DNA of 64,000 bases, from positions 6,931 to 70,930 of the forward strand of contig JBBPIT010000009.1 in the NCBI GenBank assembly GCA_038040175.1, written 5' to 3'. Within the stretch, counting starts at the first letter, position 1; each line of letters opens with the position of its first letter. The notes under the pieces were generated by a model that was not told where the DNA came from, made no database searches, and saw only the letters and a list, made by a program, of their open reading frames with translations. Of the stretch, positions 17,846-45,891 are shown one piece after another. The stretch comes from Pseudomonadota bacterium. Its GTDB lineage: Bacteria; Pseudomonadota; Gammaproteobacteria; Burkholderiales; JACQAP01. Both the position numbers and the translations under genes were made by a program.

Positions 17846-19000
17846 ATGACCGCTGCCCCGACCCCGTTCCGGCTGCATGTCGGCGACGACGTGCTCGCCG
17901 ATCTCAAGTCGCGTCTCGCCCGCGTGCGCTGGCCGGACGAAGTGCCGGACAACCACTGGAAATACGGAACGGATCTGCCTTACCTGAAATCGCTGGTGGA
18001 GTACTGGCGCGACCGCTACGACTGGCGCAAGCACGAAGCCGGGATCAACCGCTTCAACCAGTACAAGGTCAGGCTCGCCGGAATCGACGTGCACTACATC
18101 CGCGAGGAAGGCAAAGGCCCGAAGCCGATGCCTCTGTTGATCTCGCATGGCTGGCCGGGATCGGTGCACGAATTCCACAAGCTGATTCCGATGCTCACCG
18201 ATCCGGCGCGCTTCGGCGGCGACGCGGCAGACGCGTTCACTGTCGTCGCGCCGTCGCTGCCGGGGTACACCTTCTCCTTTACGCCGAACCAGCAGCGCTT
18301 CTCGGTCGAACAAATTGCCGACTTATTTGCGGAGTTGATGACCCGTGTACTAGGTTGCAAGCGCTTTGCCGCGCAGGGCGGCGACTGGGGCGCGTTCGTC
18401 ACCTCGCGGCTGGGTTACGCCTACCCGCAGCATCTGGCGGGCATTCACCTGAATTTGCTTGGGCTCAGGCGCGACACGGCGATGCCGGAGAACCCCACCG
18501 AAGACGAGCGGCGCTATTTCGAGCAGCGTGCGCAGTGGATGAAGGAGGAGGTCGGTTACACCTGGATCCAGGGCACCAAGCCGCAGACGCTGGCCTATGC
18601 CCTCACCGATTCGCCGGTCGGGCTGGCGGCGTGGATCGTCGAGAAGTTCCACACCTGGAGCGACCACAAGGGCGACCTCGACGGCTACATCGGCCGCGAC
18701 GCGATGCTCACCAACATCATGCTGTACTGGGTGACCGGCGCGATCGGTTCGTCGTTCTGGCCCTACTACGCGCGCATGCACGGTCCCTGGCCGATCCCGG
18801 ACGGTGAGCGCATTCAGGTGCCGATGGGCTACGCCGAGTTCCCGAAGGAGATCCTGCGTCCGCCGCGCTCGCTTGCGGAAAAGATGTACGCCGACATCCG
18901 CCGCTGGACCAGGATGCCGAAGGGCGGGCACTTCGCCGCGCTCGAACAGCCGGAGCTGCTGGCACAGGACATCCGCGAGTTCTTCCGGCCGCTGCGATAA
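17846..19000 (+). CDS. Epoxide hydrolase (microsomal EH-like, with N-terminal EHN domain)
   Basis: 384 aa with FRLHVGDDVLADLKSRLARVRWPDE, YDWRKHEAGINRFNQYK, IDVHYIRE, LLISHGWPGSVHEF, QGGDWGA and a C-terminal GGHFAALEQPELLAQDIREFFRPLR. Confidence 0.9.
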   Translation: MTAAPTPFRLHVGDDVLADLKSRLARVRWPDEVPDNHWKYGTDLPYLKSLVEYWRDRYDWRKHEAGINRFNQYKVRLAGIDVHYIREEGKGPKPMPLLISHGWPGSVHEFHKLIPMLTDPARFGGDAADAFTVVAPSLPGYTFSFTPNQQRFSVEQIADLFAELMTRVLGCKRFAAQGGDWGAFVTSRLGYAYPQHLAGIHLNLLGLRRDTAMPENPTEDERRYFEQRAQWMKEEVGYTWIQGTKPQTLAYALTDSPVGLAAWIVEKFHTWSDHKGDLDGYIGRDAMLTNIMLYWVTGAIGSSFWPYYARMHGPWPIPDGERIQVPMGYAEFPKEILRPPRSLAEKMYADIRRWTRMPKGGHFAALEQPELLAQDIREFFRPLR

Positions 19001-19097: not shown

Positions 19098-19772
19098 TTA
19101 ATCCCCGAACCCTCGACGAAGCCCCGCGCATGCGGGGCTTTCTGTCGGGGGCGGGGCGATGACTGATGCATAGCCGGCGCGTTCCAGTTCGCCCAGGTGC
19201 GCGAGATCTTCCGGGAGGTCCACATCGAATGCGAGCCCCGCACTTTCTACGGTTACGCATTGCACGCCGAGCTGCCGCACGTGCTCAAGATGGCGCACGA
19301 AGCTTCCCGGCCCGAAGGAAAAAGCGAATTCCAGCGACGGTTCCAGGCACAGGCCATTGGTCCCTTGCCGAGCCCGGTCCGGCGCGATGCCGACGCTGTG
19401 AGCCGACCCGGCGTCTGCGAGGCGTCGCAAGTCCTCCGCTTCCAACAGTGGAAGATCGCACGGGACTACCAGCATGTGCGACGCGCCCAGACGCCGGACT
19501 GCGAGTTGTGCTTGCCGCAACGCGCCGTTCAACCCGACGCACGCGCGTTCCTCGAGCACCTGCGCACCGAACTCGGCAGCGCGTGTGCGCGTTTCGCTGC
19601 ACCCGCTGACCAGCAGGGTCCGCTCCAGACCAGGAAATTGTGCGGCTCGCTCGAGTGTGCGCAAGAGCAGTCTTTCCAGGAACGCGCGGCGCCGCATGGG
19701 GTCGAGTGCCGGCGCCAGCCGGCTTTTGCCGTCGCGCAGGGACTTCATCGGCACGACCAGCCAGACACTCAT
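19098..19772 (-). CDS. cofC: 2-phospho-L-lactate (or PEP/3PG) guanylyltransferase, F420 biosynthesis
   Basis: 224 aa. MSVWLVVPMKSLRDGKSRL...GLNGALRQA...LVVPCDLPLL is the CofC/FbiD pattern. Its ATG overlaps the cofD stop (ATGA). Confidence 0.75.
   Translation of the reverse strand: MSVWLVVPMKSLRDGKSRLAPALDPMRRRAFLERLLLRTLERAAQFPGLERTLLVSGCSETRTRAAEFGAQVLEERACVGLNGALRQAQLAVRRLGASHMLVVPCDLPLLEAEDLRRLADAGSAHSVGIAPDRARQGTNGLCLEPSLEFAFSFGPGSFVRHLEHVRQLGVQCVTVESAGLAFDVDLPEDLAHLGELERAGYASVIAPPPTESPACAGLRRGFGD
19118..19141 (+). terminator. GC-rich stem-loop downstream of the epoxide hydrolase gene
   Basis: GAAGCCCCGC-gcat-GCGGGGCTT followed by tctgtc. It lies inside the last codons of the convergent cofC ORF, so its role is uncertain. 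Confidence 0.45.
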
Positions 19773-20734
19773 GCCCTTGCTCTTCTTGCCGCGGGTGAAG
19801 CGAACAGGCGGGTGAATTCGATGACCCGCCCGGCAAGTGCCGGCCGATCCCCCGGATCGTTCATGACGGTCGCCGTCGCGAGTGGGCGGATGCCCAGCTG
19901 CTCAATGGAGGCGCTCAGGGCCGCATCGGCGTGATCCACGACCAATGCGTCGATGAGGCCTTGATAGAATCGCGCGACCTCCACCGACGAAGGCTCCTTC
20001 CCCAGCTCGCGCATGATCTTGGCGGCAGGGCCCTTGAGCGCCTGTCCGGCGACGATGGGCGACACGGCGATCGCAGGCACCCGCCGGTGCTCGAGCGCGC
20101 TTCGCACTCCGGGGAGTGCGAGGATGGGAGCCACGCTCAAGTGCGGGTTCGACGGACAGATGACCACGGCGCTCAGCGATGGGCTGTCGAGGGCCGCGCG
20201 GAAAGCGGCTGCGATCCGCGCCCGTTCGGCGCCGGCGAACTCCAGGTTCGTCACGGCCGGCTCGGCGCGCCGCCGCACGAAATAATCCTGAAAGCTCAGT
20301 ACGCCCTCGACGGTGTGCACGAGGGTGCGTACCGGGTCATCGCTCATCGGCGTGATGCAGTGGCGGATGCCCAGGCTTGCGCACAACGCCCGGGTGACGG
20401 CGGAGAGGCTCTCCCCGGTGCGCAGCCGCCGCGTGCGCTCCACATGGGTGGCGAGGTCGCGGTCACCGAGGCGGAACCAGGTCTCTCCACCCAGTGCCTC
20501 CAGGCTCTGCATGAAGTTCCAGGTTTCTGCTGCGATACCCCAGCCCCGCGACGGATCGTTGATGCCCGCCAGCGTGTACATCACCGTGTCCAGATCCGGG
20601 GAAACATTCATCCCCAGATGCTCGAAGTCGTCTCCTGTGTTGACGACAACCGTCAGTTCATCGGGAGCGAGCACATCCGCGAGGCCCTTGGCGAGCTTCG
20701 CCCCTCCAACGCCGCCGGCAAGCGCGAGGATCAC
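19769..20734 (-). CDS. cofD: 2-phospho-L-lactate transferase, F420 biosynthesis
   Basis: ORF 19769..21211 is over-extended. A GTG at 20734 overlaps the upstream stop (GTGA) and gives (M)ILALAGGVGGAKLAKGLADVL...VVNTGDDFEHLGMNVSPDLDTVMYTLAG...GWGIAAETW, the CofD signature. The trimmed product is 321 aa (966 nt including the stop codon). Confidence 0.85.
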   Translation of the reverse strand: MILALAGGVGGAKLAKGLADVLAPDELTVVVNTGDDFEHLGMNVSPDLDTVMYTLAGINDPSRGWGIAAETWNFMQSLEALGGETWFRLGDRDLATHVERTRRLRTGESLSAVTRALCASLGIRHCITPMSDDPVRTLVHTVEGVLSFQDYFVRRRAEPAVTNLEFAGAERARIAAAFRAALDSPSLSAVVICPSNPHLSVAPILALPGVRSALEHRRVPAIAVSPIVAGQALKGPAAKIMRELGKEPSSVEVARFYQGLIDALVVDHADAALSASIEQLGIRPLATATVMNDPGDRPALAGRVIEFTRLFASPAARRARA

Positions 20735-21387
20735 GGTTCGCCGTCCTCGTAGCGGGTGACTTCGCAGACTGGACGGCGCCTGAACGGCTTGCCCTGGTCT
20801 GCCGGATAACCCAGCGTGACGATCGCTTGCGGCTCCCAGTCGGAGGGAAGTACAACCGCCGCCGATACCGCTTCCGGGCAGAACAGCGGCGCGCACATCC
20901 AGCATGCACCCAGGCCCGCGGCATGCGCGGCCAGCAGCAGATTCTGGGCGGCCATCGCTGTTCCCTGCGCTGCCATCAGTCGCTCTGCCTGATTGCGCTT
21001 TTCGTCGGGGTAGCAGTCCATGTCCGCCATGGTCATGCAAACCAGGATGAGTACCGGTGCGCCGGTCAGGCGCGAGTGGGAACGCGCCACGTCGGCGTCG
21101 ATGGCATCCGCGGGATCGCCGTCGCCCTGGCGATCCGCGCGCAGCTTCTCGCCCATGGATCGGGCGAGGTTTTCCTTCGCTGCCTGTGTCTCGATCACGA
21201 GGAAACGCCACGGCTGGCGATTGTGGGCGGACGCTGCCGTCACCGCAGTCTCAAGAAGAGAATCGACCAGCTCGCGTGCAACCGGCAACGGCAGATAACG
21301 CCGGATCGAGCGACGTCCCGCGACAGGATCGGCGAACGAGATAGCGTGGGCCGGGTCGTTTGCCAGGCGATTTTCCTTGACGCCCAT
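20731..21387 (-). CDS. Stand-alone nitroreductase-family protein (FbiB C-terminal-domain-like; candidate dehydro-F420-0 reductase)
   Basis: Trimmed to MGVKENRL (ATG at 21387, 2 nt after the cofE stop). RRSIRRYLPLPV...AASAHNRQPWRF...AAQNLLLAAHAAGLGACW is the nitroreductase fold. It sits between cofE and cofD. Confidence 0.7.
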   Translation of the reverse strand: MGVKENRLANDPAHAISFADPVAGRRSIRRYLPLPVARELVDSLLETAVTAASAHNRQPWRFLVIETQAAKENLARSMGEKLRADRQGDGDPADAIDADVARSHSRLTGAPVLILVCMTMADMDCYPDEKRNQAERLMAAQGTAMAAQNLLLAAHAAGLGACWMCAPLFCPEAVSAAVVLPSDWEPQAIVTLGYPADQGKPFRRRPVCEVTRYEDGEP

Positions 21388-21389
21388 GG

Positions 21390-22202
21390 TTATCGGAACA
21401 AGTCTATTTCCTTGGGGCGGATCAGCTCGGCTGCGCATCCGTTGTGCGCTTCGCCAGGCAGACCGCGGATCAGTACGATGGGCGTGCCTTCGTCGGACTG
21501 GCCCATCAACAGCGACGCGGCCGCCGCCAGTTCGTCGGCCAGGCCAACTTGCGTGATGCGTAGCGCCCGCCCAAACAGATCGGGCTTGCCGCGCAGGTCG
21601 AGCAGTGCCGGAACGCCGCTTGCGCCGATGGCAACGCCCACCGTGCCGTTGCGCCAGGCGCGGCCGTGGCTGTCGTTGATGATCACGCCAACATCAACCG
21701 CCGCGCGCTGCAGCAGTTCGTGCCGCAATTGCGTGCACTCGCCATCCGGGTCGCGCGGCAGCAGCAGCGCCCGGGTCTCCTGCGCATTGCCCTCCACGTT
21801 CGAAAAGTCGATACCGGCGTTCGCCATCACGAACCCGAGGCGGTGTACCACCACGATGACGTCGCGCCGGGCGCGCAGCACTTCAGAGGATTCGCGGAGG
21901 ATGAGCTCGATGACGCGCGGGTCCTTGTCGACGACCGTGGACAACTCCAGCGCGCGAGGGGATGGCGTCACCGTAGCAAGATCCACATGGCAGCCCCGGG
22001 CCTTGGACACGATCTTCTGCGCGAGCACCAGCACGTCGCCGGACGCCAGTTTCTCGCCGGAGCGCGCAACGGCGCTGATGATCGTCTCGCACAGATCGTC
22101 GCCTTCGCGCACCAGCGGCACGCCGGCCAGCGCGATGAGCCGAACCTCGCGTTTGCCTGCCGCTTTCGACGGGCGTGCGCCCGCATCCGCCATGACACCC
22201 AT
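21390..22202 (-). CDS. cofE: Coenzyme F420-0:L-glutamate ligase
   Basis: Trimmed to MGVMADAG; the ATG at 22202 shares its A with the npdG TGA stop. GDVLVLAQKIVSKARG, FVMANAGIDFSNV, VGVIINDSHGRAWRNGTVGVAIG and DELAAAASLLMGQSDEGTPIVLIRG match the CofE signature. Confidence 0.85.
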   Translation of the reverse strand: MGVMADAGARPSKAAGKREVRLIALAGVPLVREGDDLCETIISAVARSGEKLASGDVLVLAQKIVSKARGCHVDLATVTPSPRALELSTVVDKDPRVIELILRESSEVLRARRDVIVVVHRLGFVMANAGIDFSNVEGNAQETRALLLPRDPDGECTQLRHELLQRAAVDVGVIINDSHGRAWRNGTVGVAIGASGVPALLDLRGKPDLFGRALRITQVGLADELAAAASLLMGQSDEGTPIVLIRGLPGEAHNGCAAELIRPKEIDLFR

Positions 22203-22924
22203 CAGTGCTCCGCGGCGTCCAGGCGGGTGATGCGGATGCCGGCGCCGCCGTGAATCTTGTAGCGGGAATTGATCGCGATCAGGACCGACGTCAGCGCCTC
22301 GGCAGCCGCGGAGTTGGCGATGGGCCCGGCGTGTATGCCGCGCAGACCGATGTCCCCGGCAAGCTTGATGACCGTCTCGCGCGCGGGCACATCGTCCCCG
22401 CACACCAGCACGTCGCACTCCACTTCATGACCAAGGTCCTGCAGGAGATGTGCCGCCACGTTCTGGAATGCCGAGACTACCCTGACGGATTCGCCCAGCA
22501 AGGCCTGGATCGCCGCCACGGCTGACCCGTCCTCGGGGAGCTGGACGCGCGCGACCGTCGGGGGCACCAGTGGCACGGTGGTGTCGACGAGGATTTTTCC
22601 CTCGAGCGCTGGACGCACCTCTTCGACGGTGCCGCGCTGGGCGGCGTAGGGAACGCACAGGACAACGATCTGCGCGGACGCGGCGGCGCCGCGATAGCTG
22701 TCGTGCGAGACAGCGGCCCGCCCCAGCCGTGCATCGATCTGTGCGCACACCTGCGCTGCCTTCTCGGCGTTGCGCGAGCCGATGATGACCGGGTAGCCCG
22801 CATGCGCCCAGCGCAGCGCCAGTCCACTGCCTTCGGCGCCGGTGCCGCCCAGCACTGCAATCGTCGGTCGCGCTGAAGCGTTATCCGTAGTAGTCATTTC
22901 ATCCTTGAAAAAGTATTCCATCAC
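22202..22924 (-). CDS. npdG: NADPH-dependent F420 reductase (F420H2:NADP+ oxidoreductase)
   Basis: 240 aa with IAVLGGTGAEGSGLALRWAHAGYPVIIGSR, VPYAAQ, VVSAFQNV and GPIANSAAAEALTSVLI. Confidence 0.8.
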   Translation of the reverse strand: MMEYFFKDEMTTTDNASARPTIAVLGGTGAEGSGLALRWAHAGYPVIIGSRNAEKAAQVCAQIDARLGRAAVSHDSYRGAAASAQIVVLCVPYAAQRGTVEEVRPALEGKILVDTTVPLVPPTVARVQLPEDGSAVAAIQALLGESVRVVSAFQNVAAHLLQDLGHEVECDVLVCGDDVPARETVIKLAGDIGLRGIHAGPIANSAAAEALTSVLIAINSRYKIHGGAGIRITRLDAAEH

Positions 22925-22952
22925 AGAGGTTCATGAAGTGCGGTTTTTGGGT

Positions 22953-23912
22953 TCATCGGTCCGCAAGCGGCAGCACCTTGGCCGCGAACCGCCCCATCGC
23001 GGCGAGCGACTCATCCAGCGTGGGCCGCACGAAGTTGAACAGCAGGTGGCGCACTCCCAGGGCGCGGAATGCGCGGATGTCCTGCGCCACCTCCGCGTCG
23101 CTGCCGGTGAATGTCTGCCGCTGCCCGTCTTCGAGCGTGCTGGTGCGGCCTTCCCTGTACCAGGCCGCCCAGTACGCAAGGTCGATGCTGTCGGGATCGC
23201 GCTTTGCGCGGGTGGCATCCTCGCGCAACCGGGATAGCGCCTGGGAATAGCGCTCGACGGTGTTCAGCGGAAACTGCGGGTTGGAGCCGATCGGGTACCA
23301 GGCATCGCCCAGCGCCACCACACGTCGCAATGCCGCCGGGCTCTCGCCGCCGATCCACAGCGGCGGGTGCGGTTTCTGCGCGGGTTTGGGCAGAAAGCTG
23401 ATGTCCTGGAAATGCGCGTAGCTGCCAGCGAAACGCGGATCGTCTTCGGTCCAGAGCGTCTTGAAAATGTGCAGGTACTCATCCGTGACCTTGCCGCGCT
23501 CGGCGAAGGGCGGCACGCCGATGGCCCTGAATTCCTCGTCCATCCAGCCGGCGCCGCAGCCCACTGTCACCCGCCCCTGCGAGAGGATGTCGATGGTCGC
23601 CAGCGCCTTGGCCGTGAACACGGGATTGCGGTGAGGCACCACCATGACCGAAGTCAGCAAGCGGATCCTGGTCGTCGCGGCAGCCAGATAGGCCATCAGC
23701 ACGAGTTGTTCAAGGCAATCACCTTCGGCGGCACCCACCATCTTGCGCTCGGTGTTGTACGGATACGGCGAGGCGATCTGGCGCGGGATGACGATATGGT
23801 CGGGAATGGCAAGGTAGGCGAAGCCGAGTTCCTCACCCCGCCGGGCCAGTGCGACGATGCTCTCACGCGTTGCAAGTGCACCTCGTGTGGGAATGCTGAA
23901 GCCGTAATCCAC
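22953..23912 (-). CDS. Luciferase-like (LLM class) F420-dependent oxidoreductase
   Basis: 319 aa with LGFAYLAIPDHIV, RIRLLTSVMVVPHRNPVFTAKALATIDILSQGRVTVGCGAGWMDEEF and PHPPLWIGGESPAALRRVVALGDAWYP. Confidence 0.8.
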   Translation of the reverse strand: MDYGFSIPTRGALATRESIVALARRGEELGFAYLAIPDHIVIPRQIASPYPYNTERKMVGAAEGDCLEQLVLMAYLAAATTRIRLLTSVMVVPHRNPVFTAKALATIDILSQGRVTVGCGAGWMDEEFRAIGVPPFAERGKVTDEYLHIFKTLWTEDDPRFAGSYAHFQDISFLPKPAQKPHPPLWIGGESPAALRRVVALGDAWYPIGSNPQFPLNTVERYSQALSRLREDATRAKRDPDSIDLAYWAAWYREGRTSTLEDGQRQTFTGSDAEVAQDIRAFRALGVRHLLFNFVRPTLDESLAAMGRFAAKVLPLADR

Positions 23913-23972
23913 CGATCGAACCTCCTGTGTGTCTCTGTCGTGAGCTGCTTTTTCCAGAGTGAAAGCTGGCGC

Positions 23973-26435
23973 TTAGACCGGCGTTGCAGTCGCTGGCCGA
24001 GTGTTTGTCGCCTGGATGCGGGCACGCTTGCCTGCGGGCGTCAGCACGATCGGGGCGAGCGTCTGCGCCGCATACGAGCGCTCGCATTGCCCGGCTGGCG
24101 CCGCCGAATAGAGCGTCGTGCGCTGCTGCGCTACGCGTCCACAGGAGGCAATCAGTTCGTCCATGCGTTGTGGCGGCATTTCCTGTCCGTGACAGGTGCC
24201 TGCTGCGCGCGAAATACTCTCGTTCATCAGCGTGCCGCCGAGGTCGTTGGCGCCCGCCTGCAAACAGGCGCGCACCGCCTCCGCGCCCAGCTTCACCCAC
24301 GACACCTGCACGTTGGGAATCAGCGGATGCAGTGCCAGCCGCGCCACCGCATGCATCAGCACGGTCTCGCGGTAAGTGGGACCTTTGCGCGCCTTGCCAT
24401 GCAGGTACATCGGCGCTTCCATGTGCACGAAGGGCAGAGGGACGAACTCGGTGAACCCCTGGGTGCGCGCCTGCAGCGCGCGAATGCGCAGCAGATGCCG
24501 CGCCCAGTGCTCGTATCTGTCGACATGTCCGAACATGATGGTCGCGGTGGTCCTGAAGCCCGCCCGGTGCGAGGCCTCGATCACCTGCAGCCACTGCCCG
24601 GTGGTGAGCTTGTCGGGGCAGATGATGCGGCGCACTTCGTCATCCAGAATTTCCGCCGCGGTGCCGGGCAGGGTTCCCAGGCCGGCGTCACGCAGGCGGT
24701 GCAAAAATTCATCCACCGATAAATGCAGCGTCTGCGCGCCGTGCCATACCTCCAACGGAGAAAACGCGTGGACGTGCATGGGCGGGAGTGCCGACTTCAC
24801 TGCCCGGCACAGCGCCAGATAGGTTTCGCCCGTGTAATCGGGATGAATCCCGCCCTGCATGCACACCTCGGTGGCGCCGCGCTCCCACGCTTCCTCGGCG
24901 CGCCGCACGACTTCGTCGAGCCCCAGATCGTAAGGCGTGCCACGCAGATTGTCGGCGGCCTTGCCCTTGGAGAATGCGCAGAAATGGCAGCGGAAAGCGC
25001 ACACGTTGGTGTAGTTGATGTTGCGGTTGACCACGTAGCGCACCGTGTCGCCCACGGTGCGCCGGCGCAATTCGTCTGCCGCAGCGCAGACGGCATCGAA
25101 CTGCGCGCCGCGCGCCCGAAACAGCGCAACGATATCGCGCTCCTGCAGTGCTTGCCCGTCGACGGCTGCGTCGAGGATGCGTGCAATTTCTCGCATCGGC
25201 GCGCCCGCCGGGGTCATTGCCGGAACAGCGCTAATCTTTGCCGGAACTGCGCCTGACTGGCCCGGCGACCAGGCATCGGTCCGGGCGAATCCTTCGGCAT
25301 CGACCGCCCGCAGCACACGGGAAACCAGCGCAGGATCCTGCCAGGTCGCAGCGTCCCTGCAAAAGCCCGGATAGACGGCGAGCCGTTCGACCAGTACCTT
25401 GCCCGCGCCTTCGGTGTTCTCGCGCAACCTGACGATGTCCGGCCACGGCATCTCGGGGTTGACGTGATCGGGCGTGACCGGCGACACGCCGCCCCAGTCG
25501 TTCAGTCCGGCCGCGATCAGCTGCGTGTAAGCGTCCGGCGTCAGGTTCGGCGGCACCTGCAGGTTCATCTCCGGTCCGAAAATTATCCGGGCGACGGCCA
25601 GCGTCCACATCAACTCGGCGAACCCGGGCTCCGGTGCAGCGGCCATCTTCGTCGCGGACTTGGCGCGGAAGTTCTGGATGATCACTTCCTGGATGTGGCC
25701 GTAGGACTCGTGCAGCGCACGGATGGCAAGGAGTGAATCGATCCGCTCCTCCCGCGTCTCGCCGATCCCGATAAGGATGCCGGTGGTAAAGGGAACCTTC
25801 AGTTCGCCGGCGTGGCGCATCGTTTCCATCCGCACCGCCGGCGCTTTATCCGGAGAGCCATAGTGCGCGCCGCCCCGCTCGCACAGCCGCGTGGAGACAT
25901 TTTCGAGCATGATGCCCTGCGAGACCGACACGCGGCGCAGCAGTGCCACTTCTTCTCGCGACATCACACCGGGGTTGACGTGGGGCAGCAGACTCGTTTC
26001 CCGCAGCAGCAGCGCGCACATTTCTGCGAGATAGGACAGCGTTGTCCCATGCCCGAGCCGCGCCAGTTCCTCGCGCGCCGCGGCGTAGCGCAGTTCGGGC
26101 TTGTCGCCGAGGGTGAACAGCGCCTCGTGGCAGCCGGCGCGCTCGCCCGCGCGCGCGATCTCCAGCACCTGTTCGGGAGACAGATAGGCACGCGCGCCCC
26201 TGCGGGGCGTGGCAGCAAACGTGCAGTAATGGCAGACATCCCGGCACAGGTGGGTGAGCGCGATGAACACCTTGCGCGAATACGACACGACGTCGCCGTG
26301 ACCCATGTCGCGCAGCCGGGAGGCCTGGGCGATCAGTGCATCGGCGCCGGCTTGCAGCGCCACCCGCCGCGCTTCGTCATCGCTCAGGCGGCGGTGCGTG
26401 CTGGCCTCGAGAAGTGTGGCGACTGGCTCCGTCAT
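23973..26435 (-). CDS. fbiC: Bifunctional FO (7,8-didemethyl-8-hydroxy-5-deazariboflavin) synthase, CofG+CofH fusion
   Basis: ORF 23973..26606, trimmed to MTEPVATLLE (ATG at 26435). Two radical-SAM CxxxCxxC motifs are present (CRDVCHYCTFA and CAFRCHFCAF). The product of about 820 aa is colinear with FbiC. Confidence 0.9.
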   Translation of the reverse strand: MTEPVATLLEASTHRRLSDDEARRVALQAGADALIAQASRLRDMGHGDVVSYSRKVFIALTHLCRDVCHYCTFAATPRRGARAYLSPEQVLEIARAGERAGCHEALFTLGDKPELRYAAAREELARLGHGTTLSYLAEMCALLLRETSLLPHVNPGVMSREEVALLRRVSVSQGIMLENVSTRLCERGGAHYGSPDKAPAVRMETMRHAGELKVPFTTGILIGIGETREERIDSLLAIRALHESYGHIQEVIIQNFRAKSATKMAAAPEPGFAELMWTLAVARIIFGPEMNLQVPPNLTPDAYTQLIAAGLNDWGGVSPVTPDHVNPEMPWPDIVRLRENTEGAGKVLVERLAVYPGFCRDAATWQDPALVSRVLRAVDAEGFARTDAWSPGQSGAVPAKISAVPAMTPAGAPMREIARILDAAVDGQALQERDIVALFRARGAQFDAVCAAADELRRRTVGDTVRYVVNRNINYTNVCAFRCHFCAFSKGKAADNLRGTPYDLGLDEVVRRAEEAWERGATEVCMQGGIHPDYTGETYLALCRAVKSALPPMHVHAFSPLEVWHGAQTLHLSVDEFLHRLRDAGLGTLPGTAAEILDDEVRRIICPDKLTTGQWLQVIEASHRAGFRTTATIMFGHVDRYEHWARHLLRIRALQARTQGFTEFVPLPFVHMEAPMYLHGKARKGPTYRETVLMHAVARLALHPLIPNVQVSWVKLGAEAVRACLQAGANDLGGTLMNESISRAAGTCHGQEMPPQRMDELIASCGRVAQQRTTLYSAAPAGQCERSYAAQTLAPIVLTPAGKRARIQATNTRPATATPV

Positions 26436-26539: not shown

Positions 26540-27658
26540 CTAGTGATCGTGCCGGTGATGGGCGCTCAATGCGTCCGTGCCAAAGTCGGCGACCGGATCG
26601 CGCCATACCGTGTGCACGTGGTTCCCATCGCGCGTGGTGTTGTCGTACTCGACCAGCAGGCGATGTCCCTGGATACGGTAATAGTGCGGCCGTCCCGGTT
26701 CATTGCTTCCCGCCCAGGCAAGGTGAAGGCTCGGGAATGACGGACCGGTGATCTTGGCCATTTCGCCGTCGGCGATGTGGTCCGGCAGGCGTCGCACATA
26801 GACGTCCAGTAGCGCCCGCAGCATTTCCTGCTGCGAGGCGCTCATCGCCGCTGCGGCCAGGCCTTTCGGTACGGTCGTAAAGCGCAATGCGTCGATATGG
26901 GTTCCCGTGAGACCGAGCTTCGCTTCCTCGGCGTCCTGAACGCGTTCGAGCATATCCTGGAGTTCGCCCGTAAACTCGTTGCGCCATATCTTGGCCAGTC
27001 GCTTGGGGCCGTCGCCCTCGCTGAGAACGGTGCGATTTGCGCCCACCAGGTCGACTGGCGGTACCGGCGACAGCACAGCGACGGACCTTTGCTCGTCGCT
27101 CAGTGAGCGCAGCAGGTCGAACGCCAGGTCTTCACAGGCAGCCAGTGGTCGCAGAAGATGCGGCCCGAGCAAGGGCGACGACGCGGGATCTGCGCCGAAG
27201 AAGCAGGGTGTGAAGGCGCGCACCTCGCCAGCGGCGACCGTGTGGTGAATGGAGATATGATGGCCGCCGAAACGCCACGACCAGGTGTCGGCGCCAGGCG
27301 TACCGAACACGCGCAGGTAATAGCGCGCGGGATCGCGTCCGCGATCGAACCCGTACGACGCGCGCCAGCCTTCGAGTTCGTCAAGGACGTTCTCGAGTCC
27401 CATGATGGTCGAGGCGGTGACAAACCCTGCTCGGCTCAAGCCCGTGGCGAGCAGCCGCATGGTGAGTCGCTGCTGGGTCGGGCTCATCTCGCCGACAGTC
27501 AGACCGCCGTGGTCTGTCGGCGTGTAGAACCACAGCCGGCGTTCCTCGTCCGAAGGGAAGTCCCACTGCGCCACACGCCGCTGATCGGCCGGGAGTGTGT
27601 CGAGCAGCGCTTGGGCGGCCTCTGCCATGCGCGCGGCGATGCTGCGGCTGTCGCTCAT
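26540..27658 (-). CDS. DUF3500 domain protein
   Basis: 372 aa with AAQALLDTLPADQRRVAQWDFPSDEERRLWFYTP...GLTVGEMSPTQQRLTMRLL and WSWRFGGHHISIH. This is DUF3500 as I remember it. Confidence 0.65.
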   Translation of the reverse strand: MSDSRSIAARMAEAAQALLDTLPADQRRVAQWDFPSDEERRLWFYTPTDHGGLTVGEMSPTQQRLTMRLLATGLSRAGFVTASTIMGLENVLDELEGWRASYGFDRGRDPARYYLRVFGTPGADTWSWRFGGHHISIHHTVAAGEVRAFTPCFFGADPASSPLLGPHLLRPLAACEDLAFDLLRSLSDEQRSVAVLSPVPPVDLVGANRTVLSEGDGPKRLAKIWRNEFTGELQDMLERVQDAEEAKLGLTGTHIDALRFTTVPKGLAAAAMSASQQEMLRALLDVYVRRLPDHIADGEMAKITGPSFPSLHLAWAGSNEPGRPHYYRIQGHRLLVEYDNTTRDGNHVHTVWRDPVADFGTDALSAHHRHDH

Positions 27659-28827
27659 GCACCGGGTGCCCGCAGGCCGAAAATCAGTTCCGGGTCGCCG
27701 GGAACCCAGGTGCCGTCGAACTGTGAGCGGCGCCCGTTGCGGCGGGTGCGATCAAGAAGTTGCTGCCCGAGCGCGAGCTGTCCCGGTTCCCACTGTGCGA
27801 GGGCGGTCGGAACGTCACGTTGCCGATCGAGCGCGTCGGCCAGCGCCCAGGCGTCGGCGGCTGCCTTTGCCGTTCCGGCTGCCGCGTGCGGTCGCGCAAC
27901 GAACGCGGCGTCGCCGATCAGGCAGACGCGTCCGAAGGCCATGCGCGGCACCTCGATATCGTAGACGACCTGGAGGAACGGCTGCGCGGTGCTGCAAACG
28001 ACACGGGCGATTGGTTCGGGGAGGCGCGCCGCCGCTACAGCGCGCAGTTCTGCGACATGTTGCTCTCTGGCCGCGCCGGGTGGCAGCGATATGTCGCGAC
28101 GCTGACCGGTGTCATCGGTGAGCACGTCATCGAGGTCGCTGCCCTTGAGGTAGTTGCGGTACCAGACGAAGTTGATGAGCCGTTCGCCGGGCGTCACCGA
28201 ACCAGCCGGTCCGGGTATCGGGTACACGAGGATGTGACTGTTCGCGTAGACATAGTAGGTGATGGCGTCATCGAACACCGCACGGGTGGCCATGTCCAGC
28301 GAGGTTTCGGCAACCATGCCCCGCCACGCCACATATCCCGAGTACGACGGCTGCACCGCCGGCAACAGGCGCGCCCGCGCGGCCGAGCCGACGCCGTCGG
28401 CGCAGACCAGAAGATCGACTTGCTGCGATGGTTTGTTGGCGAAGTGAGCCTCCACGGCGTCGTCGCCGTCGACCCATCCGGTCATCTCGTGGCCGAGGTG
28501 ATACTGCGAGGGTTTGATGCGTGCCAGCAACTGCCGGTACACGGTATGCCACGAACTGAACCGGTACTGGTGCAGCCCGTCGTAGATCACCTCGCCGCGG
28601 CGGTCCAGATAGCGGATGTGCGAGGTGGCGACGCTGATGCGCTCCAGTGCGACGCCGGCGCGCTCGACCAGGTAGCGGGCGCTCTCAGGAAGGAATCCGA
28701 TGCCCGCCCCGCGTTGCACCAACTCAGAGGGTGAGCGCTCATAGACGTCGACTTCGACGCCAAGCTCGTGGAGCAACAGCGCCGCGGTCAGCCCGCCGAG
28801 AGAGCCGCCGATGACCGCAGCGCGCAT
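27655..28827 (-). CDS. FAD-dependent monooxygenase (aromatic-ring hydroxylase-like)
   Basis: 390 aa with MRAAVIGGSLGGLTAALLLHELGVEVDVYERS (GxGxxG), DLLVCADGVGS and GRVCLIGDAAFVARPHAAAGTAKAAADA. Its stop overlaps the DUF3500 start. Confidence 0.8.
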   Translation of the reverse strand: MRAAVIGGSLGGLTAALLLHELGVEVDVYERSPSELVQRGAGIGFLPESARYLVERAGVALERISVATSHIRYLDRRGEVIYDGLHQYRFSSWHTVYRQLLARIKPSQYHLGHEMTGWVDGDDAVEAHFANKPSQQVDLLVCADGVGSAARARLLPAVQPSYSGYVAWRGMVAETSLDMATRAVFDDAITYYVYANSHILVYPIPGPAGSVTPGERLINFVWYRNYLKGSDLDDVLTDDTGQRRDISLPPGAAREQHVAELRAVAAARLPEPIARVVCSTAQPFLQVVYDIEVPRMAFGRVCLIGDAAFVARPHAAAGTAKAAADAWALADALDRQRDVPTALAQWEPGQLALGQQLLDRTRRNGRRSQFDGTWVPGDPELIFGLRAPGA

Positions 28828-28839
28828 ACGGCCGCTCGG

Positions 28840-29361
28840 TCAGGGCTTGCCGAACGTGGCGATCTTGTCGACCGGGCACTCGAACAGCACCCGACGTTCG
28901 TTGCGCGACGGGTCGCGCAGACCATAGGGCGGGGGATTCTTGGTGTACTTGGTCCAGATCTTGTCGAGCTGGGCGGTGACGCGCGGGCCCTCCTTCGGAT
29001 CGTCCTCGGAGATCTCACGCTTGACGGTGCACTTGATGCTCACCCAGTGATACATGTTCGCCGGATTTACCAGCAGCATCGAGAGCTGCGGGTTGGCGCG
29101 GATCCACTCGACTTTCTTGCGGTGCGAAGCGACGTTGACCAGAACCGTCGAGCCCTCGTAGTCGAACCACATCGGCGTCAGGTTCGGTCGCCCATTGGAG
29201 CCCATTACCGCGAGTACGACCGGGATGGGTTCTTCGAGCAGGCGCTTGTAGATCGGGTCGATATCGTTCAACGAGTTGATCTTGTCTCGCGAGCCTACCG
29301 AAAACTGGTTAGCCTGCAAGCCGTTGGCGACATCAAGGAACTTAGCCACTGCGATTGCCAT
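28840..29361 (-). CDS. Pyridoxamine 5'-phosphate oxidase-fold protein (possible F420/FMN-binding split-barrel)
   Basis: 173 aa with PVVLAVMGSNGRPNLTPMWFDYEGSTVLVNVASHRKKVEWIRANPQLSMLLVNP, the PPOX-like split beta-barrel pattern. The cofactor cannot be told from the sequence. Confidence 0.6.
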   Translation of the reverse strand: MAIAVAKFLDVANGLQANQFSVGSRDKINSLNDIDPIYKRLLEEPIPVVLAVMGSNGRPNLTPMWFDYEGSTVLVNVASHRKKVEWIRANPQLSMLLVNPANMYHWVSIKCTVKREISEDDPKEGPRVTAQLDKIWTKYTKNPPPYGLRDPSRNERRVLFECPVDKIATFGKP

Positions 29362-29418
29362 AACCCCCTCCCCCTTATGATTGGTGAAAACCTGCGAGCC
29401 ACTTTATCACTGCCCGGG

Positions 29419-29523
29419 ATGCATTTGGAAGGGCAATTCGCTGCGCTCGAACAGCCGGAGCTGCTGGCACAGGAAATCCGCGAGTTTTTACGCCCTTTGC
29501 GCCAGGAATTGATAGGGGCGTAG
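29419..29523 (+). pseudogene. 3'-terminal fragment of an epoxide hydrolase paralog
   Basis: It translates to MHLEGQFAALEQPELLAQEIREFLRPLRQELIGA*, compared with the full gene tail MPKGGHFAALEQPELLAQDIREFFRPLR* at 18917-19000. The nucleotide core gcgctcgaacagccggagctgctggcacagga is identical in both (29443 onward and 18938 onward). No upstream coding part remains. Confidence 0.75.
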
Positions 29524-29684: not shown

Positions 29685-29930
29685 ATGAAGACAACCGTAG
29701 ATATTGCTGACCCATTGCTCGACGAGGCGAAAAGAGTCGCAAACCGCGACGGTACGACTGTCAAGGCGCTGCTGGAGCAGGGGCTGAGACAGGTGCTGTC
29801 GGAGCGCAAGACCGCCGGCGCATTTCGCCTGCGCAAAGCGACATTCCGTGGGCGCGGACTGCAGTCCGGCGTTGCACATCTGTCCTGGGACCGAATTCGC
29901 GATCTTGCCTACGAGGGGCGAGGCGGATGA
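29685..29930 (+). CDS. vapB: Type II antitoxin, VapB family
   Basis: Trimmed to MKTTVDIADPLLDEAKRVANRDGTTVKALLEQGLRQVL. It overlaps the downstream PIN gene by 4 nt. Confidence 0.8.
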   Translation: MKTTVDIADPLLDEAKRVANRDGTTVKALLEQGLRQVLSERKTAGAFRLRKATFRGRGLQSGVAHLSWDRIRDLAYEGRGG

Positions 29931-30361
29931 TCGCTCTTGACACCAACATCTTGGTGTACGCGCATCGCGAGGAAGCCGCCTGGCACCACGCTGCCTACGA
30001 GAAACTTGAAGAACTGGCCGTAGGTCGCTCGGCCTGGGCGATTCCTTGGCCCTGTATTCATGAATTTCTGGCGATTACGACGCATCCGCGGATCTTCGAT
30101 CCACCCACACCGCTGGCCAAGGGGATGGACCAGGTGGAAGCCTGGCTGGAGTCGCCGACACTGTTTGTGCTATCGGAATCCGGAAATTACTGGCAAGAAC
30201 TGCGGCCTCTCCTGGAGGCGGGCAAAATCGCGGGCCCTCAGGTTCACGACGCGCGTATCGCGGCGCTGTGTATGCAGCATGGGGTTCGAGAACTTTGGAC
30301 CGCAGATCGTGACTTCGGGAGATTTCCCGATCTAAAAGTTGTAAATCCGCTGGTCGCCTGA
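29927..30361 (+). CDS. vapC: PIN-domain ribonuclease toxin, VapC family
   Basis: 144 aa with MIALDTNILVYAHRE...HDARIAALCMQHGVRELWTADRDFGRF, carrying the PIN acidic residues. Confidence 0.85.
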   Translation: MIALDTNILVYAHREEAAWHHAAYEKLEELAVGRSAWAIPWPCIHEFLAITTHPRIFDPPTPLAKGMDQVEAWLESPTLFVLSESGNYWQELRPLLEAGKIAGPQVHDARIAALCMQHGVRELWTADRDFGRFPDLKVVNPLVA

Positions 30362-30399: not shown

Positions 30400-30599
30400 A
30401 TGCGTGAGGAAGGTGAATCGCTCCGCGGGGGTTGTCCAGGTTCGACGTGCCACGTATTACAGCCACGCTCAAGACCGATGACGGGGCGCTGATCTACCTG
30501 TCCTACAACGGCATTAACCAGCACTCCGCCGAAAGCGCGGAGCGACTCTGCAAGGAGGAGCTGCTGACCACCCAGGACATTCCCTACTTCACACAATGA
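30400..30599 (+). pseudogene. Degraded DUF3237 (UPF0311)-like gene fragment
   Basis: One frame gives EGESLRGGCPGS. The frame from 30447 gives VPRITATLKTDDGALIYLSYNGINQHSAESAERLCKEELLTTQDIPYFTQ*. This resembles the central part of DUF3237 proteins as I recall them (FEG..LRG.V.PGG ... Y.L.TDDGALIY). The N-terminus is missing and the frame is broken. Confidence 0.45.
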
Positions 30600-30967
30600 C
30601 GGCGCAGCCAATCGGCGAAGGTCGCCTCGTCCATTTCGCCGGCTGCGACTGCGAGCATGGTGAGAACGCAAGCAGCATCGTCCGCGACTAGCCGGTACCC
30701 ATTCAAACGAAGAAAAAGCTCGACTGAGACGAACGCGGTCCGTTTGTTGCCGTCCACGAACGGGTGATTTCGTGCGATGCCGACGCCATACGAGGCGGCG
30801 AGTTCTGCAACGTCAGGCTCGCCGTAGGCCACTAGATTCATCGGTCGCGCAAGCGCCGATTCCAGCAAACCTATGTCTCGGACGTCGGGGCTACCTCCGT
30901 GTTCAGCGAGTTGTTCCTCATGTACTGCAAGGACGACGGTAGGGTCGATCCAAACCCATTCCGTCAT
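30584..30967 (-). CDS. doc: Doc (death-on-curing) Fic-family toxin
   Basis: 127 aa with VLAVHEEQLAEHGG...GLLESALARP...ARNHPFVDGNKRTAF, which is the Fic/Doc motif. Confidence 0.9.
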   Translation of the reverse strand: MTEWVWIDPTVVLAVHEEQLAEHGGSPDVRDIGLLESALARPMNLVAYGEPDVAELAASYGVGIARNHPFVDGNKRTAFVSVELFLRLNGYRLVADDAACVLTMLAVAAGEMDEATFADWLRRHCVK

Positions 30968-31188
30968 TTCGCCAGCTCTCGCAACACCGCCCGCCGCTCC
31001 TTCATGATTTCGCGTGCAGTCTTCATCTGCTCCTCGAAATCGGGGTTATGTGGGGTGATGCGATAGCCGTCCGGCGACTCGGTAATGTAGACCTCGTCGC
31101 CCTTTCCAAGCTTGAGCCGCGCAAGCACTTCCTTCGGCAGGATGACGCCGACCGAATTGCCGATCTGGGTGAGTTTGAGGGTGAACAT
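30964..31188 (-). CDS. AbrB/MazE/SpoVT-type antitoxin partner of Doc (Phd-like role)
   Basis: Trimmed to MFTLKLTQIGNSVGVILPKEVLARLKLGKGDEVYITESPDGYRITP. It overlaps the doc start by 4 nt. Confidence 0.85.
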   Translation of the reverse strand: MFTLKLTQIGNSVGVILPKEVLARLKLGKGDEVYITESPDGYRITPHNPDFEEQMKTAREIMKERRAVLRELAK

Positions 31189-31573
31189 GAGGTACCTCAG
31201 CCGAGTTATAACAATCGTTACATTACATTGATATTTAGATAGTTTCAAACTTGATTGACTGTCTGGACAAGTCCGTCCGATCGCTCCTCCCGCTACCCGC
31301 TTTCGAGCGCATGAACTACTTTAAGGCTAGGTTTTCGGCAGCGTTATGGAGCCGTGTAAAGCGGTAGCCGTCACGATGGTCGCCACGATGATAGTGAGAC
31401 GCGCGCTTTTTCGGCCGGCGGTTGCCACGCCGAGTCAATGGAAAGTCTCTGCAATCGTCACTGGATCCCGTCTGCTGGACAATCTCCGGCAATGAGGTTG
31501 TAATGCCGCGACACGGCGCAACGTACACCGTGATATCAAGACCAGATCGAATTTGGCAACGCGGAGGAGAATC

Positions 31574-32635
31574 ATGAAGCAGCTATCCTTAATTGCTGTC
31601 GTCGCGGCCTGTGCCGCCGCGGTCATCATTCCTGGTATGGCCTTGTCGCAAGACGCGGCGCGCAAGGTCAAAATCGACGTCACCAGTACCTATCCCACCT
31701 CGCTGACGCTGATCGGGGAAGCTGCCCTCAGGCTGGCGAAGAGAGTGCAGCGCGCCTCGGGCGGGACGATCGAGATGAAAATCCACGAGCCCGGCGCACT
31801 CGTCCCGGGTCTGCAGGCAATTCAGGCGGTCTCCCGCGGTTCGGTGGACGCGGCGTGGTCAGCGCCCGGGTTCTTTTCGGGCACGGACGCCGTATTCAAT
31901 CTGTTCACCACGGTACCGTTCGGGCCAGGGATCCCTGAGTACCTGGCGTGGATGTACTACGGCGGCGGACAGGAGCTGCAGAACGAGATGTTCGCCAAGC
32001 ACGACGTTCACGCGACCATCTGCGGCATCCATTCCCCCGAGTCCTCCGGCTGGTTCCGCAAGGAAATCAAGACGGTCAACGATCTCAAGGGCCTGAAGAT
32101 GCGCTTTTTCGGACTCGGCGGACGGGTCATGGAAAAGCTCGGCGTCTCGACCCAGTTGCTCGCCCCGGGTGACATCTTCCAGGCGCTGCAACTCGGCACC
32201 ATCGACGCCACGGAGTTCTCGATGCCGGCGCTGGACCAGAAGCTCGGTTTCTACCAGGTCGCCAAGTACTACTACTTCCCGGGCTGGCACCAGCAGGCCT
32301 CGATCCTCGACCTGTTCATCAACCAGAAGAAGTGGGACTCGCTCTCGGATCAGCACAAGGCGATCATCGAACTGGCCTGTGGGGATACCATCCGGGACAT
32401 CATCGCGGAGGGTGAAGCGATCCAGTGGAAGGCGATGAAGGAAATGCGCGACAAGAACGGCGTCAAGATCATGCGCTGGTCGCCGGAAATCATGAAGGCT
32501 TACGAGAAGGCGTGGCTCGAAGTCGCCGCGGAAGAATCCGCGAAAAGCCCCAATTTTAAGAAAGCCTGGGATTCCTACTCGAAGTTCCGTGCCGACTATT
32601 CCCTCTGGCGCGAGTACGGTTACCTGAACCAGTAA
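31574..32635 (+). CDS. TRAP transporter substrate-binding protein (DctP family)
   Basis: Trimmed to MKQLSLIAVVAACAAAVIIPGMALSQDA (signal peptide). The body contains FTTVPFGPG..EYLAWMYYGGGQEL and RKEIKTVNDLKGLKMR. Confidence 0.85.
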   Translation: MKQLSLIAVVAACAAAVIIPGMALSQDAARKVKIDVTSTYPTSLTLIGEAALRLAKRVQRASGGTIEMKIHEPGALVPGLQAIQAVSRGSVDAAWSAPGFFSGTDAVFNLFTTVPFGPGIPEYLAWMYYGGGQELQNEMFAKHDVHATICGIHSPESSGWFRKEIKTVNDLKGLKMRFFGLGGRVMEKLGVSTQLLAPGDIFQALQLGTIDATEFSMPALDQKLGFYQVAKYYYFPGWHQQASILDLFINQKKWDSLSDQHKAIIELACGDTIRDIIAEGEAIQWKAMKEMRDKNGVKIMRWSPEIMKAYEKAWLEVAAEESAKSPNFKKAWDSYSKFRADYSLWREYGYLNQ

Positions 32636-32700
32636 TCCGTTGAGAAGTGCGGCGGCCGGTACTTGCCGGCCGCTGTCTTGCGTCCGGGAGAGACAAAGGC

Positions 32701-33264
32701 ATGGACCGGCTGCTGAAGACCAGTGACGCCATCAACCGCGTCCTGGAGAGGGTCGCGATGGCCGCGGGCTGGCTGTTCGTCGTCTGCACGGCAGTGATCG
32801 TGATGGACGTGCTTTCGCGCAAGGCCGGTTACCAGATTCCCGGGATGGGTTCGACGCGCCTGCAGGAACTGGAGTGGCACCTGCACACCGCGCTTTTCTC
32901 TTTCTGGCTCGGGGCGGCGTACATCAAAAACACGCACGTCCGCATCGACGTCGCCTTCGCCAACGCCAAGCCGGCTACGCATGCCTGGGCCGAATTCCTC
33001 GGCTGCCTGGTGTTCGCTCTGCCGTACTGCCTGATCGCGATCTACTTCAGCTTCGACTTCTTCTGGATCGCCTGGCAACAGAACGAGTTCTCCGAGAACC
33101 CGAGCGGCCTGCCTTGGCGCTGGGTGCCTAAAGGGTTCATCTTCATTGGTCTGGTGCTGCTACTCGCGGCGGTCGTTTCCGTGTTCATGCGTGTGATCGT
33201 GTACCTGTTTGGGCCGGAGCGCCTGCGCGAAGCGGCCGCCTTCGCCGGCGCCAGGAAAAATTGA
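32701..33264 (+). CDS. TRAP transporter small permease (DctQ family)
   Basis: Trimmed to MDRLLKTSDAINRVLERVAMAAGWLFV. It has 4 predicted TM segments and sits between the DctP and DctM genes. Confidence 0.8.
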   Translation: MDRLLKTSDAINRVLERVAMAAGWLFVVCTAVIVMDVLSRKAGYQIPGMGSTRLQELEWHLHTALFSFWLGAAYIKNTHVRIDVAFANAKPATHAWAEFLGCLVFALPYCLIAIYFSFDFFWIAWQQNEFSENPSGLPWRWVPKGFIFIGLVLLLAAVVSVFMRVIVYLFGPERLREAAAFAGARKN

Positions 33265-33274
33265 GGTTCCGGCC

Positions 33275-34660: not shown

Positions 34661-34829
34661 TTGAAGCAGTTAGGAATCAGGGAGGGGTGAGGAGCGACGG
34701 GGTAAGGGCAGAACGGGCGTAGGCTAAGCTGCGCTCACGGCACACAGGACGCCTGGCAACAACGGCGGGCGTTTCTTTTGGTGGCGAGTCGCGCAACAAT
34801 GGCGCTGCCACCTCTCCGGGGAGGAGAAG

Positions 34830-45881: not shown

Positions 45882-45891
45882 GGAGGAGACC

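Follow-up and report, generated by a model that had tools for sequence, protein, structure and literature searches.

A 64,000-nucleotide stretch of a pseudomonadotal contig (JBBPIT010000009.1, positions 6,931 to 70,930; assembly GCA_038040175.1), referred to below as the window, carries a compact coenzyme F420 biosynthesis cluster in which the two activities of mycobacterial FbiB appear to be divided between a stand-alone F420-0:gamma-glutamyl ligase (CofE) and a stand-alone nitroreductase (NTR) resembling the FbiB C-terminal domain. The cluster is likely to make classical (lactyl-linked) F420 by 'bacterial pathway a', as in Actinobacteria and Chloroflexi. In this pathway FbiC would form the deazaflavin FO, CofC would activate phosphoenolpyruvate (PEP) with GTP, and CofD would transfer the enolpyruvyl phosphate onto FO to give dehydro-F420-0. 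The FMN-dependent, FbiE-like NTR would then reduce the enol double bond of dehydro-F420-0 to yield F420-0, CofE would add the gamma-glutamyl tail, and Fno would load a hydride from NADPH onto F420. The resulting F420H2 would be used by a co-transcribed LLM enzyme and perhaps also by a PPOX-class protein, conceivably within a pathway for hydroxylated aromatics that also involves a FAD monooxygenase and a DUF3500 protein.

The seven-gene F420 cluster

Assignment with NCBIfam and Pfam identified seven co-oriented genes, all on the minus strand, at 19098-26435. The identities agree throughout with those that an earlier note on this DNA, made from the letters alone, had given them. Six of the seven score above the NCBIfam curated cut-offs, the exception being the nitroreductase. 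The first gene, fbiC (23973-26435, 820 aa), encodes a fused CofG/CofH FO synthase (NF006687, score 1155 against a cut-off of 1018; CofG match 500.9 bits, CofH match 583.3 bits). Its translation contains the CxxxCxxC motif twice, as CRDVCHYC and CAFRCHFC, both radical-SAM domains noticed before being present, and the homologue in L003, a locus of an uncultured betaproteobacterium, aligns across residues 1-820. It is followed by a gene for an LLM oxidoreductase of the F420-associated Rv2161c subfamily (22953-23912, 319 aa; TIGR03619, 257.7 against 166.9), which has a GTG start with AGGAGG upstream and occupies the same position in L003 and in a second such locus, L002, with 83-84% identity. The next gene, fno/npdG (22202-22921, 239 aa; TIGR01915, 197.9 against 149.8), encodes an NADPH-dependent F420 reductase; its start may be at 22924, 22921 or 22897. 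The single-domain ligase gene cofE (21390-22202, 270 aa; TIGR01916, 270.3 against 180.65) gives a product that matches the FbiB model PRK13294 in its N-terminal half only (positions 7-243 of 449). The FbiB-C-terminal-like NTR is encoded at 20731-21387 (218 aa; PF00881, 123.8 bits), the transferase gene cofD/fbiA lies at 19769-20734 (321 aa; TIGR01819, 296.1 against 257.45), and cofC/fbiD, for a guanylyltransferase assigned to the PEP/2-phospho-L-lactate (2-PL) type, closes the cluster at 19098-19772 (224 aa; TIGR03552, 144.6 against 105). Gene prediction made independently for an identical Logan contig gave the same lengths for the last six products (319, 239, 270, 218, 321 and 224 aa).

The genes had been described as packed throughout with start/stop overlaps. 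This was seen at three junctions: TGATG with a 1-nt overlap between fno and cofE, GTGA between the NTR gene and cofD, where the NTR stop codon overlaps the cofD start, and ATGA between cofD and cofC. The other three junctions do not overlap. The cofE and NTR genes are separated by a 2-nt gap (TAAccATG), given the 218-aa NTR start at 21387, which is backed by the lengths of the homologues, nearly all of 218 aa. A spacer of 60 nt containing AGGAGG lies between fbiC and the LLM gene, and one of about 31 nt between the LLM gene and fno. We infer that the cluster is an operon. An Rfam scan of the whole window returned zero families at the gathering threshold, so that neither upstream of fbiC nor upstream of the PPOX gene was a riboswitch or leader found.

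The stand-alone nitroreductase is related to the FbiB C-terminal domain

The top NCBIfam family of the NTR is TIGR03553 (FbiB_CTERM; 138.3 bits, E 2.5e-40), followed at a distance by BluB (72 bits), NfsA (46 bits) and NfsB (26 bits). Against PRK13294 it matches positions 252-439. The protein pair does not qualify as a bifunctional FbiB, since ligase and reductase are two ORFs and PRK13294 is matched in halves, below its cut-off; cofE and the NTR gene are an unfused mycobacterial FbiB with the same domain order.

Structural comparison gave the same picture. A PDB sequence search with the NTR retrieved 4XOM, 4XOO and 4XOQ, which are the Mycobacterium tuberculosis FbiB C-terminal domain, at E 1e-29, the next match being at 4e-19. 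When the AlphaFold2 model of the NTR (pLDDT 81.6) was searched with Foldseek, the top 11 matches were all 4XOQ, 4XOM or 4XOO (TM 0.73-0.89), with generic nitroreductases next. The identity to the FbiB C-terminus is 34-36% over the structural alignment. PF00881, the model and the top Foldseek matches, all of the nitroreductase fold, agree in giving the NTR an FMN-binding nitroreductase fold. Bashiri et al. 2019 docked dehydro-F420-0 into M. tuberculosis FbiB; its enolpyruvyl group lay against P289 and M372, with the carboxylate bound by R337 (PMC6450877). Mapped via the PDB sequence alignment, R102 of the NTR corresponds to M. tuberculosis R337 and M138 to M372, and both residues are invariant in a 17-sequence alignment of the NTR family.

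Gene neighbourhoods of the nitroreductase

More than 6,900 proteins match the NTR at E <= 1e-10; the 120 closest of them are all free-standing, with lengths of about 165-240 aa and mostly of 218 aa. A scan of GTDB with one genome per species matched at least 600 stretches, at least 580 of which encode an NTR relative, and the seven proteins of the window were mapped onto the best 80 of these loci. F420 biosynthesis genes occur in the flanks of 67 of the 80. In 39 loci the genes stand exactly as cofE-NTR-cofD, usually within a fno-cofE-NTR-cofD-cofC string; these are made up of 32 Chloroflexota (mostly Anaerolineae), 4 Alphaproteobacteria and 3 Betaproteobacteria. A second proteobacterial order, fno-cofE-cofD-cofC-fbiC-NTR, is seen in Cupriavidus yeoncheonensis, Ramlibacter, Neopusillimonas maritima and an Alcaligenaceae metagenome-assembled genome (MAG), and in Stellaceae MAGs the NTR gene is followed, a few kb downstream, by a fno-cofE-cofD-cofC-fbiC string. 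Locus L001 shares 94-98% identity with the window, and L002 and L003 have all seven genes in an identical order, with identities of about 61-84%. In neighbour-joining trees of NTR, CofC, CofD and CofE the window groups with L001-L003, and the proteobacterial groups are interleaved with Chloroflexota. These trees carry no support values, and no direction of horizontal gene transfer was therefore drawn from them.

It might be argued that the NTR is a generic NfsA/NfsB/BluB-type flavoenzyme that stands beside F420 genes by chance. The PF00881 superfamily is indeed large and functionally diverse, and 13 of the 80 loci have no F420 gene in the flanking DNA examined, some of them being on short contigs. 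Against this, FbiB_CTERM outscores BluB, NfsA and NfsB by far, the structure search puts the FbiB C-terminal chains first, and the linkage to F420 genes in the 67 loci extends over three phyla or classes. The explanation is largely refuted by these observations, and we regard it as scarcely credible. The earlier note had itself named clustering with NfsA/NfsB-type enzymes as an outcome that would speak against its proposal; the scores of 138 bits for FbiB_CTERM against 46 and 26 bits for NfsA and NfsB point the other way.

That proposal, that the NTR supplies the dehydro-F420-0 reductase activity in trans and so implies a PEP route, is supported by family, fold, residues and synteny and by a precedent in Thermomicrobium roseum, where an independent homologue of the FbiB C-terminal domain, named FbiE, reduces dehydro-F420, according to the account of Braga 2020 given in the 2021 FEMS review (PMC8498797). 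Because of its affinity to the FbiB C-terminus, the retention of R337 and M372, its embedding as cofE-NTR-cofD and this precedent, we consider the role of the NTR as a predicted dehydro-F420-0 reductase to be supported.

CofC and the activated substrate

Among solved structures, the closest to the window CofC is 7P97, the 3-phosphoglycerate (3PG) enzyme of Mycetohabitans sp. B3 (E 1e-20), and M. tuberculosis FbiD gives a weaker match (E 5e-13). The possibility that the cluster makes 3PG-F420, like Mycetohabitans (Paraburkholderia) rhizoxinica, therefore deserved a test, and the betaproteobacterial nature of the host would also suit it. Hasan et al. 2022 found Ser162 (Gly163 in M. tuberculosis FbiD) to be diagnostic for use of 3PG, with Met91 and Cys95 supporting, and reported that S162G/A and C95L abolish or strongly lower 3PG activation (PMC8764529). 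The window CofC has Gly at the Ser162 site, in the motif FGPGS (FGPDS in FbiD), and Leu at both the Met91 and the Cys95 sites, and thus lacks the 3PG-type signature. The same Gly/Leu/Leu combination is present in all 48 of the 48 aligned NTR-linked CofCs. The window CofC also keeps K17, D116, T148, S166, D188 and D190 (M. tuberculosis FbiD numbering), the phosphate- and carboxylate-binding and catalytic residues. Moreover, 3PG-F420 requires no reduction (PMC8764529), yet a conserved reductase gene lies inside the operon. With Gly/Leu/Leu at the diagnostic sites, production of 3PG-F420 is very unlikely, and the caution of the earlier note that a 3PG variant had to be kept in mind is weakened accordingly. 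The best reading of the substrate remains PEP, by the predicted route from PEP through dehydro-F420-0 to F420.

A second alternative is that 2-PL is used as in the classical archaeal scheme, without a reduction step, and that the NTR has another task, such as helping CofE with the tail or serving in an accessory or client role that depends on FMN. In vitro, 2-PL was the substrate turned over best by the CofC homologues of every organism tested, which does not tell the substrate in vivo (PMC8764529), all that was first known of the FbiB C-terminal domain was that tail extension requires it (PMC6450877), and the NTR scores under the TIGR03553 cut-off. Nevertheless, family scans of the cluster proteins found no 2-PL-making gene in the cluster. 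The NTR gene is closely packed between cofE and cofD in the 39 loci mentioned above, its product keeps the R337 and M372 positions of the dehydro-F420-0 pocket, and homologous stand-alone enzymes of Thermomicrobia are reported, in what the 2021 review relates of them, as dehydro-F420 reductases (PMC8498797). We therefore judge the use of 2-PL to be unlikely.

Several points nevertheless weigh against the PEP pathway preferred here or limit it. The NTR falls below the curated cut-off of TIGR03553 (138.3 against 249.55 bits), a model of the fused actinobacterial FbiB C-terminal domain; it thus stands outside this narrow family and yet is its nearest relative. P289 of the pocket is replaced by Ala54, so that two of the three pocket residues are kept. 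The closest solved CofC is, as described, a 3PG enzyme. In vitro CofC assays cannot separate 2-PL from PEP (PMC8764529), and the assignment of PEP accordingly leans mainly on the conserved reductase gene, an argument that is also used in the literature. The likeness to the assayed T. roseum enzymes is taken from the description in the review. A promoter and terminator scan gave counts equal to the shuffle expectation and has no bearing on operon structure. Finally, the LLM, PPOX, monooxygenase and DUF3500 proteins are regarded as putative clients on the basis of family names and adjacency.

Three upstream genes extend the cluster to a ten-gene block

The span of 19.1-26.4 kb considered in the earlier note holds the F420 genes proper, and the conserved unit is larger, as three co-oriented upstream genes have to be added. 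The first, on the minus strand like the others, encodes a DUF3500 protein (26540-27658, 372 aa; PF12006, 272 bits) and is separated from fbiC by a 104-nt gap; the best PDB match of the protein is Amc20 (9x86, E 9e-46), and its gene has the same position in L003 (78% identity). For the breakdown of gallate by fungi, DUF3500 proteins have been proposed to cleave the ring in partnership with a monooxygenase (bioRxiv 10.1101/2023.06.06.543907). The second gene, also on the minus strand (27655-28827, 390 aa), overlaps the DUF3500 gene by ATGA and encodes a FAD-dependent monooxygenase of the aromatic-ring type (NF005566, 454 against 333; PF22607 and PF01494), with an 80% identical counterpart in the same position in L003. 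The third, at 28840-29361 (minus strand, 173 aa), encodes a PPOX-class (PNPOx-fold) protein (PF01243, 43.8 bits), whose best family is TIGR03618 (Rv1155_F420) at 65.7 bits, below the cut-off of 79.05. It is possibly an F420H2-dependent FDOR. An 88% identical copy heads the cluster in L003, and a weaker homologue adjoins fbiC in L002.

All ten genes are present in L003 in the same order, at 67-88% identity and with unrelated flanks. This collinearity despite different flanks indicates that the ten-gene block, extending to 29361, is the conserved unit. It is reasonable to suppose that the block may couple F420 supply, by biosynthesis and Fno, to F420H2-using LLM and PPOX proteins in an aromatic-compound pathway.

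Related neighbours were seen in other loci. In the Anaerolineae loci L032, L044, L075 and L076 a PPOX-class gene lies between cofE and the NTR gene, its product being 27-32% identical to that of the window, which hints at a recurrent tie between the PPOX fold and the F420 tail-assembly module. In the Chloroflexota loci L023, L030, L033, L039, L049, L061 and L069 an LLM gene follows cofC. With 24-27% identity to the window LLM these proteins belong to a different subfamily, and LLM genes are thus recurrent neighbours.

Borders of the block

To the left of cofC, and convergent to it, lies an intact epoxide-hydrolase gene (17846-19000, plus strand; PF06441 and PF00561). Its 3' end (18909-18996, plus strand) is one copy of a direct repeat, D1, of 88 nt and 83% identity. 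The other copy is an orphan epoxide-hydrolase 3' remnant just beyond the start of the PPOX gene (29414-29501, plus strand), whose reading ends in ...FAALEQPELLAQEIREFLRPLRQELIGA and a stop. At their spacing of 10505 nt the two copies bracket exactly ten genes. The G+C content is raised within the block, at 0.65-0.67 compared with about 0.58-0.62 outside, which is suggestive only.

An empty site was searched for with exact 32-mers against metagenome contigs, and one contig, L083 (Ga0099830_10033384), was found. It matches the window at 17915-18996 and 34819-35431, with the epoxide-hydrolase gene (94% identity) followed about 170 nt later by a homologue of the regulator that begins at 34830 in the window. 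The window segment 19.0-34.8 kb, with the F420 block, toxin-antitoxin pairs and a TRAP transporter, is absent from this related contig, and the F420 block therefore sits in a variable region. The simplest account would be integration of an island at the 3' end of the gene, with the native end left behind as the remnant. It fits poorly, as the epoxide-hydrolase 3' end of L083 is closer to the intact copy than to the remnant. No integrase or transposase was seen inside the block. Given the resemblance of the L083 end to the intact copy and the lack of an integrase, insertion and deletion, and the mechanism of either, are indistinguishable. A tRNA-Arg(TCG) of 97 nt called by ARAGORN at 29789-29885 is probably a false positive, lying inside a vapB-like ORF and having no Rfam tRNA match; with its rejection the site is not taken as a tRNA integration site.

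A further reading goes beyond the biosynthetic pathway. The ten-gene block (19.0-29.4 kb) would be a transferable cassette that joins a self-sufficient F420 supply to an undescribed F420H2-dependent catabolism of hydroxylated or nitro-aromatic compounds and was acquired by insertion at the epoxide-hydrolase 3' end; the PPOX-class and LLM reductases may then work with the FAD monooxygenase and the DUF3500 ring-cleavage enzyme. We hold this reading as a whole to be rather doubtful. As a still bolder part of it, the PPOX-class protein may act as the physiological source, so far missing, of reduced flavin for the dehydro-F420 reductase, an idea prompted by the PPOX-class gene between cofE and the NTR gene in some Anaerolineae.

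Host and remaining genes of the window

The proteobacterial context that had been suspected from the sequence is borne out by dnaE, metG and apbC, which the window also carries: all named relatives of its DnaE are MAGs of Betaproteobacteria/Burkholderiales, and none of them exceeds 76% identity. The host therefore belongs to an uncultured lineage. It is an uncultured Burkholderiales-type betaproteobacterium, and the cluster is chromosomal.

To the right of the block the G+C content falls to 0.58 at two toxin-antitoxin pairs. The first (29686-30361, plus strand) consists of a vapB-like gene and a PIN/VapC gene, the PIN domain being confirmed by Pfam. The second (30584-31248, minus strand) consists of an AbrB/MazE-like antitoxin and a Doc/Fic-like toxin, as assigned by eye from the translations. 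These are followed by a TRAP dctPQM transporter (31553-34660) and, adjoining it, the regulator (34830-38036, plus strand, 1068 aa) with AAA_16, Trans_reg_C and BTAD domains, a SARP/AfsR-like architecture that is more typical of actinomycetes. Elsewhere, the methionyl-tRNA synthetase ORF (59242-61890, minus strand, 882 aa) contains at residues 649-759 an apparent DUF559 (Vsr-like endonuclease) domain, inserted in frame between the MetG core and the C-terminal tRNA-binding domain. A large subunit of a molybdenum hydroxylase (XdhA / 4-hydroxybenzoyl-CoA-reductase-like) is encoded at 45847-48087 and a GlcD-like FAD oxidase at 4487-5872, and enzymes for small organic compounds, both oxidoreductases and hydrolases, are abundant in the window as a whole.

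Implications

These results do not overturn the current understanding of F420 biosynthesis. Their value lies in the breadth of the module across Proteobacteria and Chloroflexota, in the compact cassette and in the candidate client genes. The Chloroflexi-type split-FbiB module occurs in Alpha- and Betaproteobacteria, many of them uncultured and some in culture; cultured examples are Trinickia (T. mobilis DHG64), Cupriavidus yeoncheonensis (LMG 31506) and Neopusillimonas maritima (KCTC 62121). Since the module is widespread in Proteobacteria, the reductase gene could serve as a practical genomic marker of the PEP route across phyla. Within about 7.3 kb the cluster unites an FO synthase, the functions for tail assembly, the reductase and Fno, and it is a candidate cassette for making F420 heterologously in Gram-negative hosts. 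A proteobacterial F420 client pathway might be traced from the LLM, PPOX, monooxygenase and DUF3500 genes that travel with it; in Proteobacteria an F420-dependent enzyme has not yet been characterised (PMC8498797).

Comparison with known systems

The window is a betaproteobacterial instance of a published Chloroflexi-type pathway, and the mechanism is not new. For Chloroflexi the split-FbiB biology is already in the literature, and it has been foreseen in other phyla: independent FbiE homologues are described in several predicted bacterial and archaeal producers, and the origin of fbiB is seen in a fusion of cofE with 'fbiE' (PMC8498797). The order of cofE and then the NTR gene in the window is that of the FbiB domains and fits this fusion view. 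In the same review the PEP route is assigned to Actinobacteria and Chloroflexi, and Betaproteobacteria are entered under the 3PG route.

A close likeness exists to T. roseum and other Thermomicrobia, which have a separate cofE and a separate FbiB-C-terminal-like NTR, as in the window, and for which the same route from PEP through dehydro-F420-0 to F420 is predicted. The module fno-cofE-NTR-cofD-cofC of the window is also the commonest arrangement among the retrieved Chloroflexota loci. In contrast to Thermomicrobia, the host of the window is a betaproteobacterium, fbiC and an Rv2161c-type LLM gene belong to the same gene string, and PPOX, FAD monooxygenase and DUF3500 genes travel with it.

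With the mycobacterial FbiA/FbiB/FbiC/FbiD system the window shares the fused FbiC, a CofC with FbiD-type PEP-binding residues including Gly163, and a reductase homologous to the FbiB C-terminal domain in which R337 and M372 are retained. It differs in that ligase and reductase are encoded by separate ORFs with a stop codon and 2 nt between them, whereas mycobacterial FbiB is one polypeptide; in addition, the genes are all in one cluster, fno included, and the NTR remains below the TIGR03553 cut-off.

Mycetohabitans (Paraburkholderia) rhizoxinica resembles the window in its betaproteobacterial host and stand-alone cofE. However, the window CofC is without the Ser162/Met91/Cys95 signature, and the window adds a dehydro-F420 reductase homologue that the 3PG route does not need. 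To our knowledge, 3PG-F420 is the only F420 route that has been studied experimentally in Betaproteobacteria. The same gene set as in the window, with FbiE-like NTRs of 55-68% identity, is found in Trinickia, Cupriavidus yeoncheonensis, Ramlibacter, Neopusillimonas and Stellaceae MAGs. Their clusters differ in having the order fno-cofE-cofD-cofC-fbiC-NTR or dispersed genes, and their CofCs are only 27-33% identical to that of the window. Paracoccus denitrificans and Oligotropha carboxidovorans, which are experimentally F420-positive, were left out of this comparison of proteobacterial clusters. Finally, the picrate-degradation genes npd of Rhodococcus encode NpdG, an F420:NADPH oxidoreductase, together with LLM-type hydride transferases. 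They are like the window in that the Fno/NpdG gene adjoins genes for an F420-class LLM and for enzymes modifying aromatic compounds.

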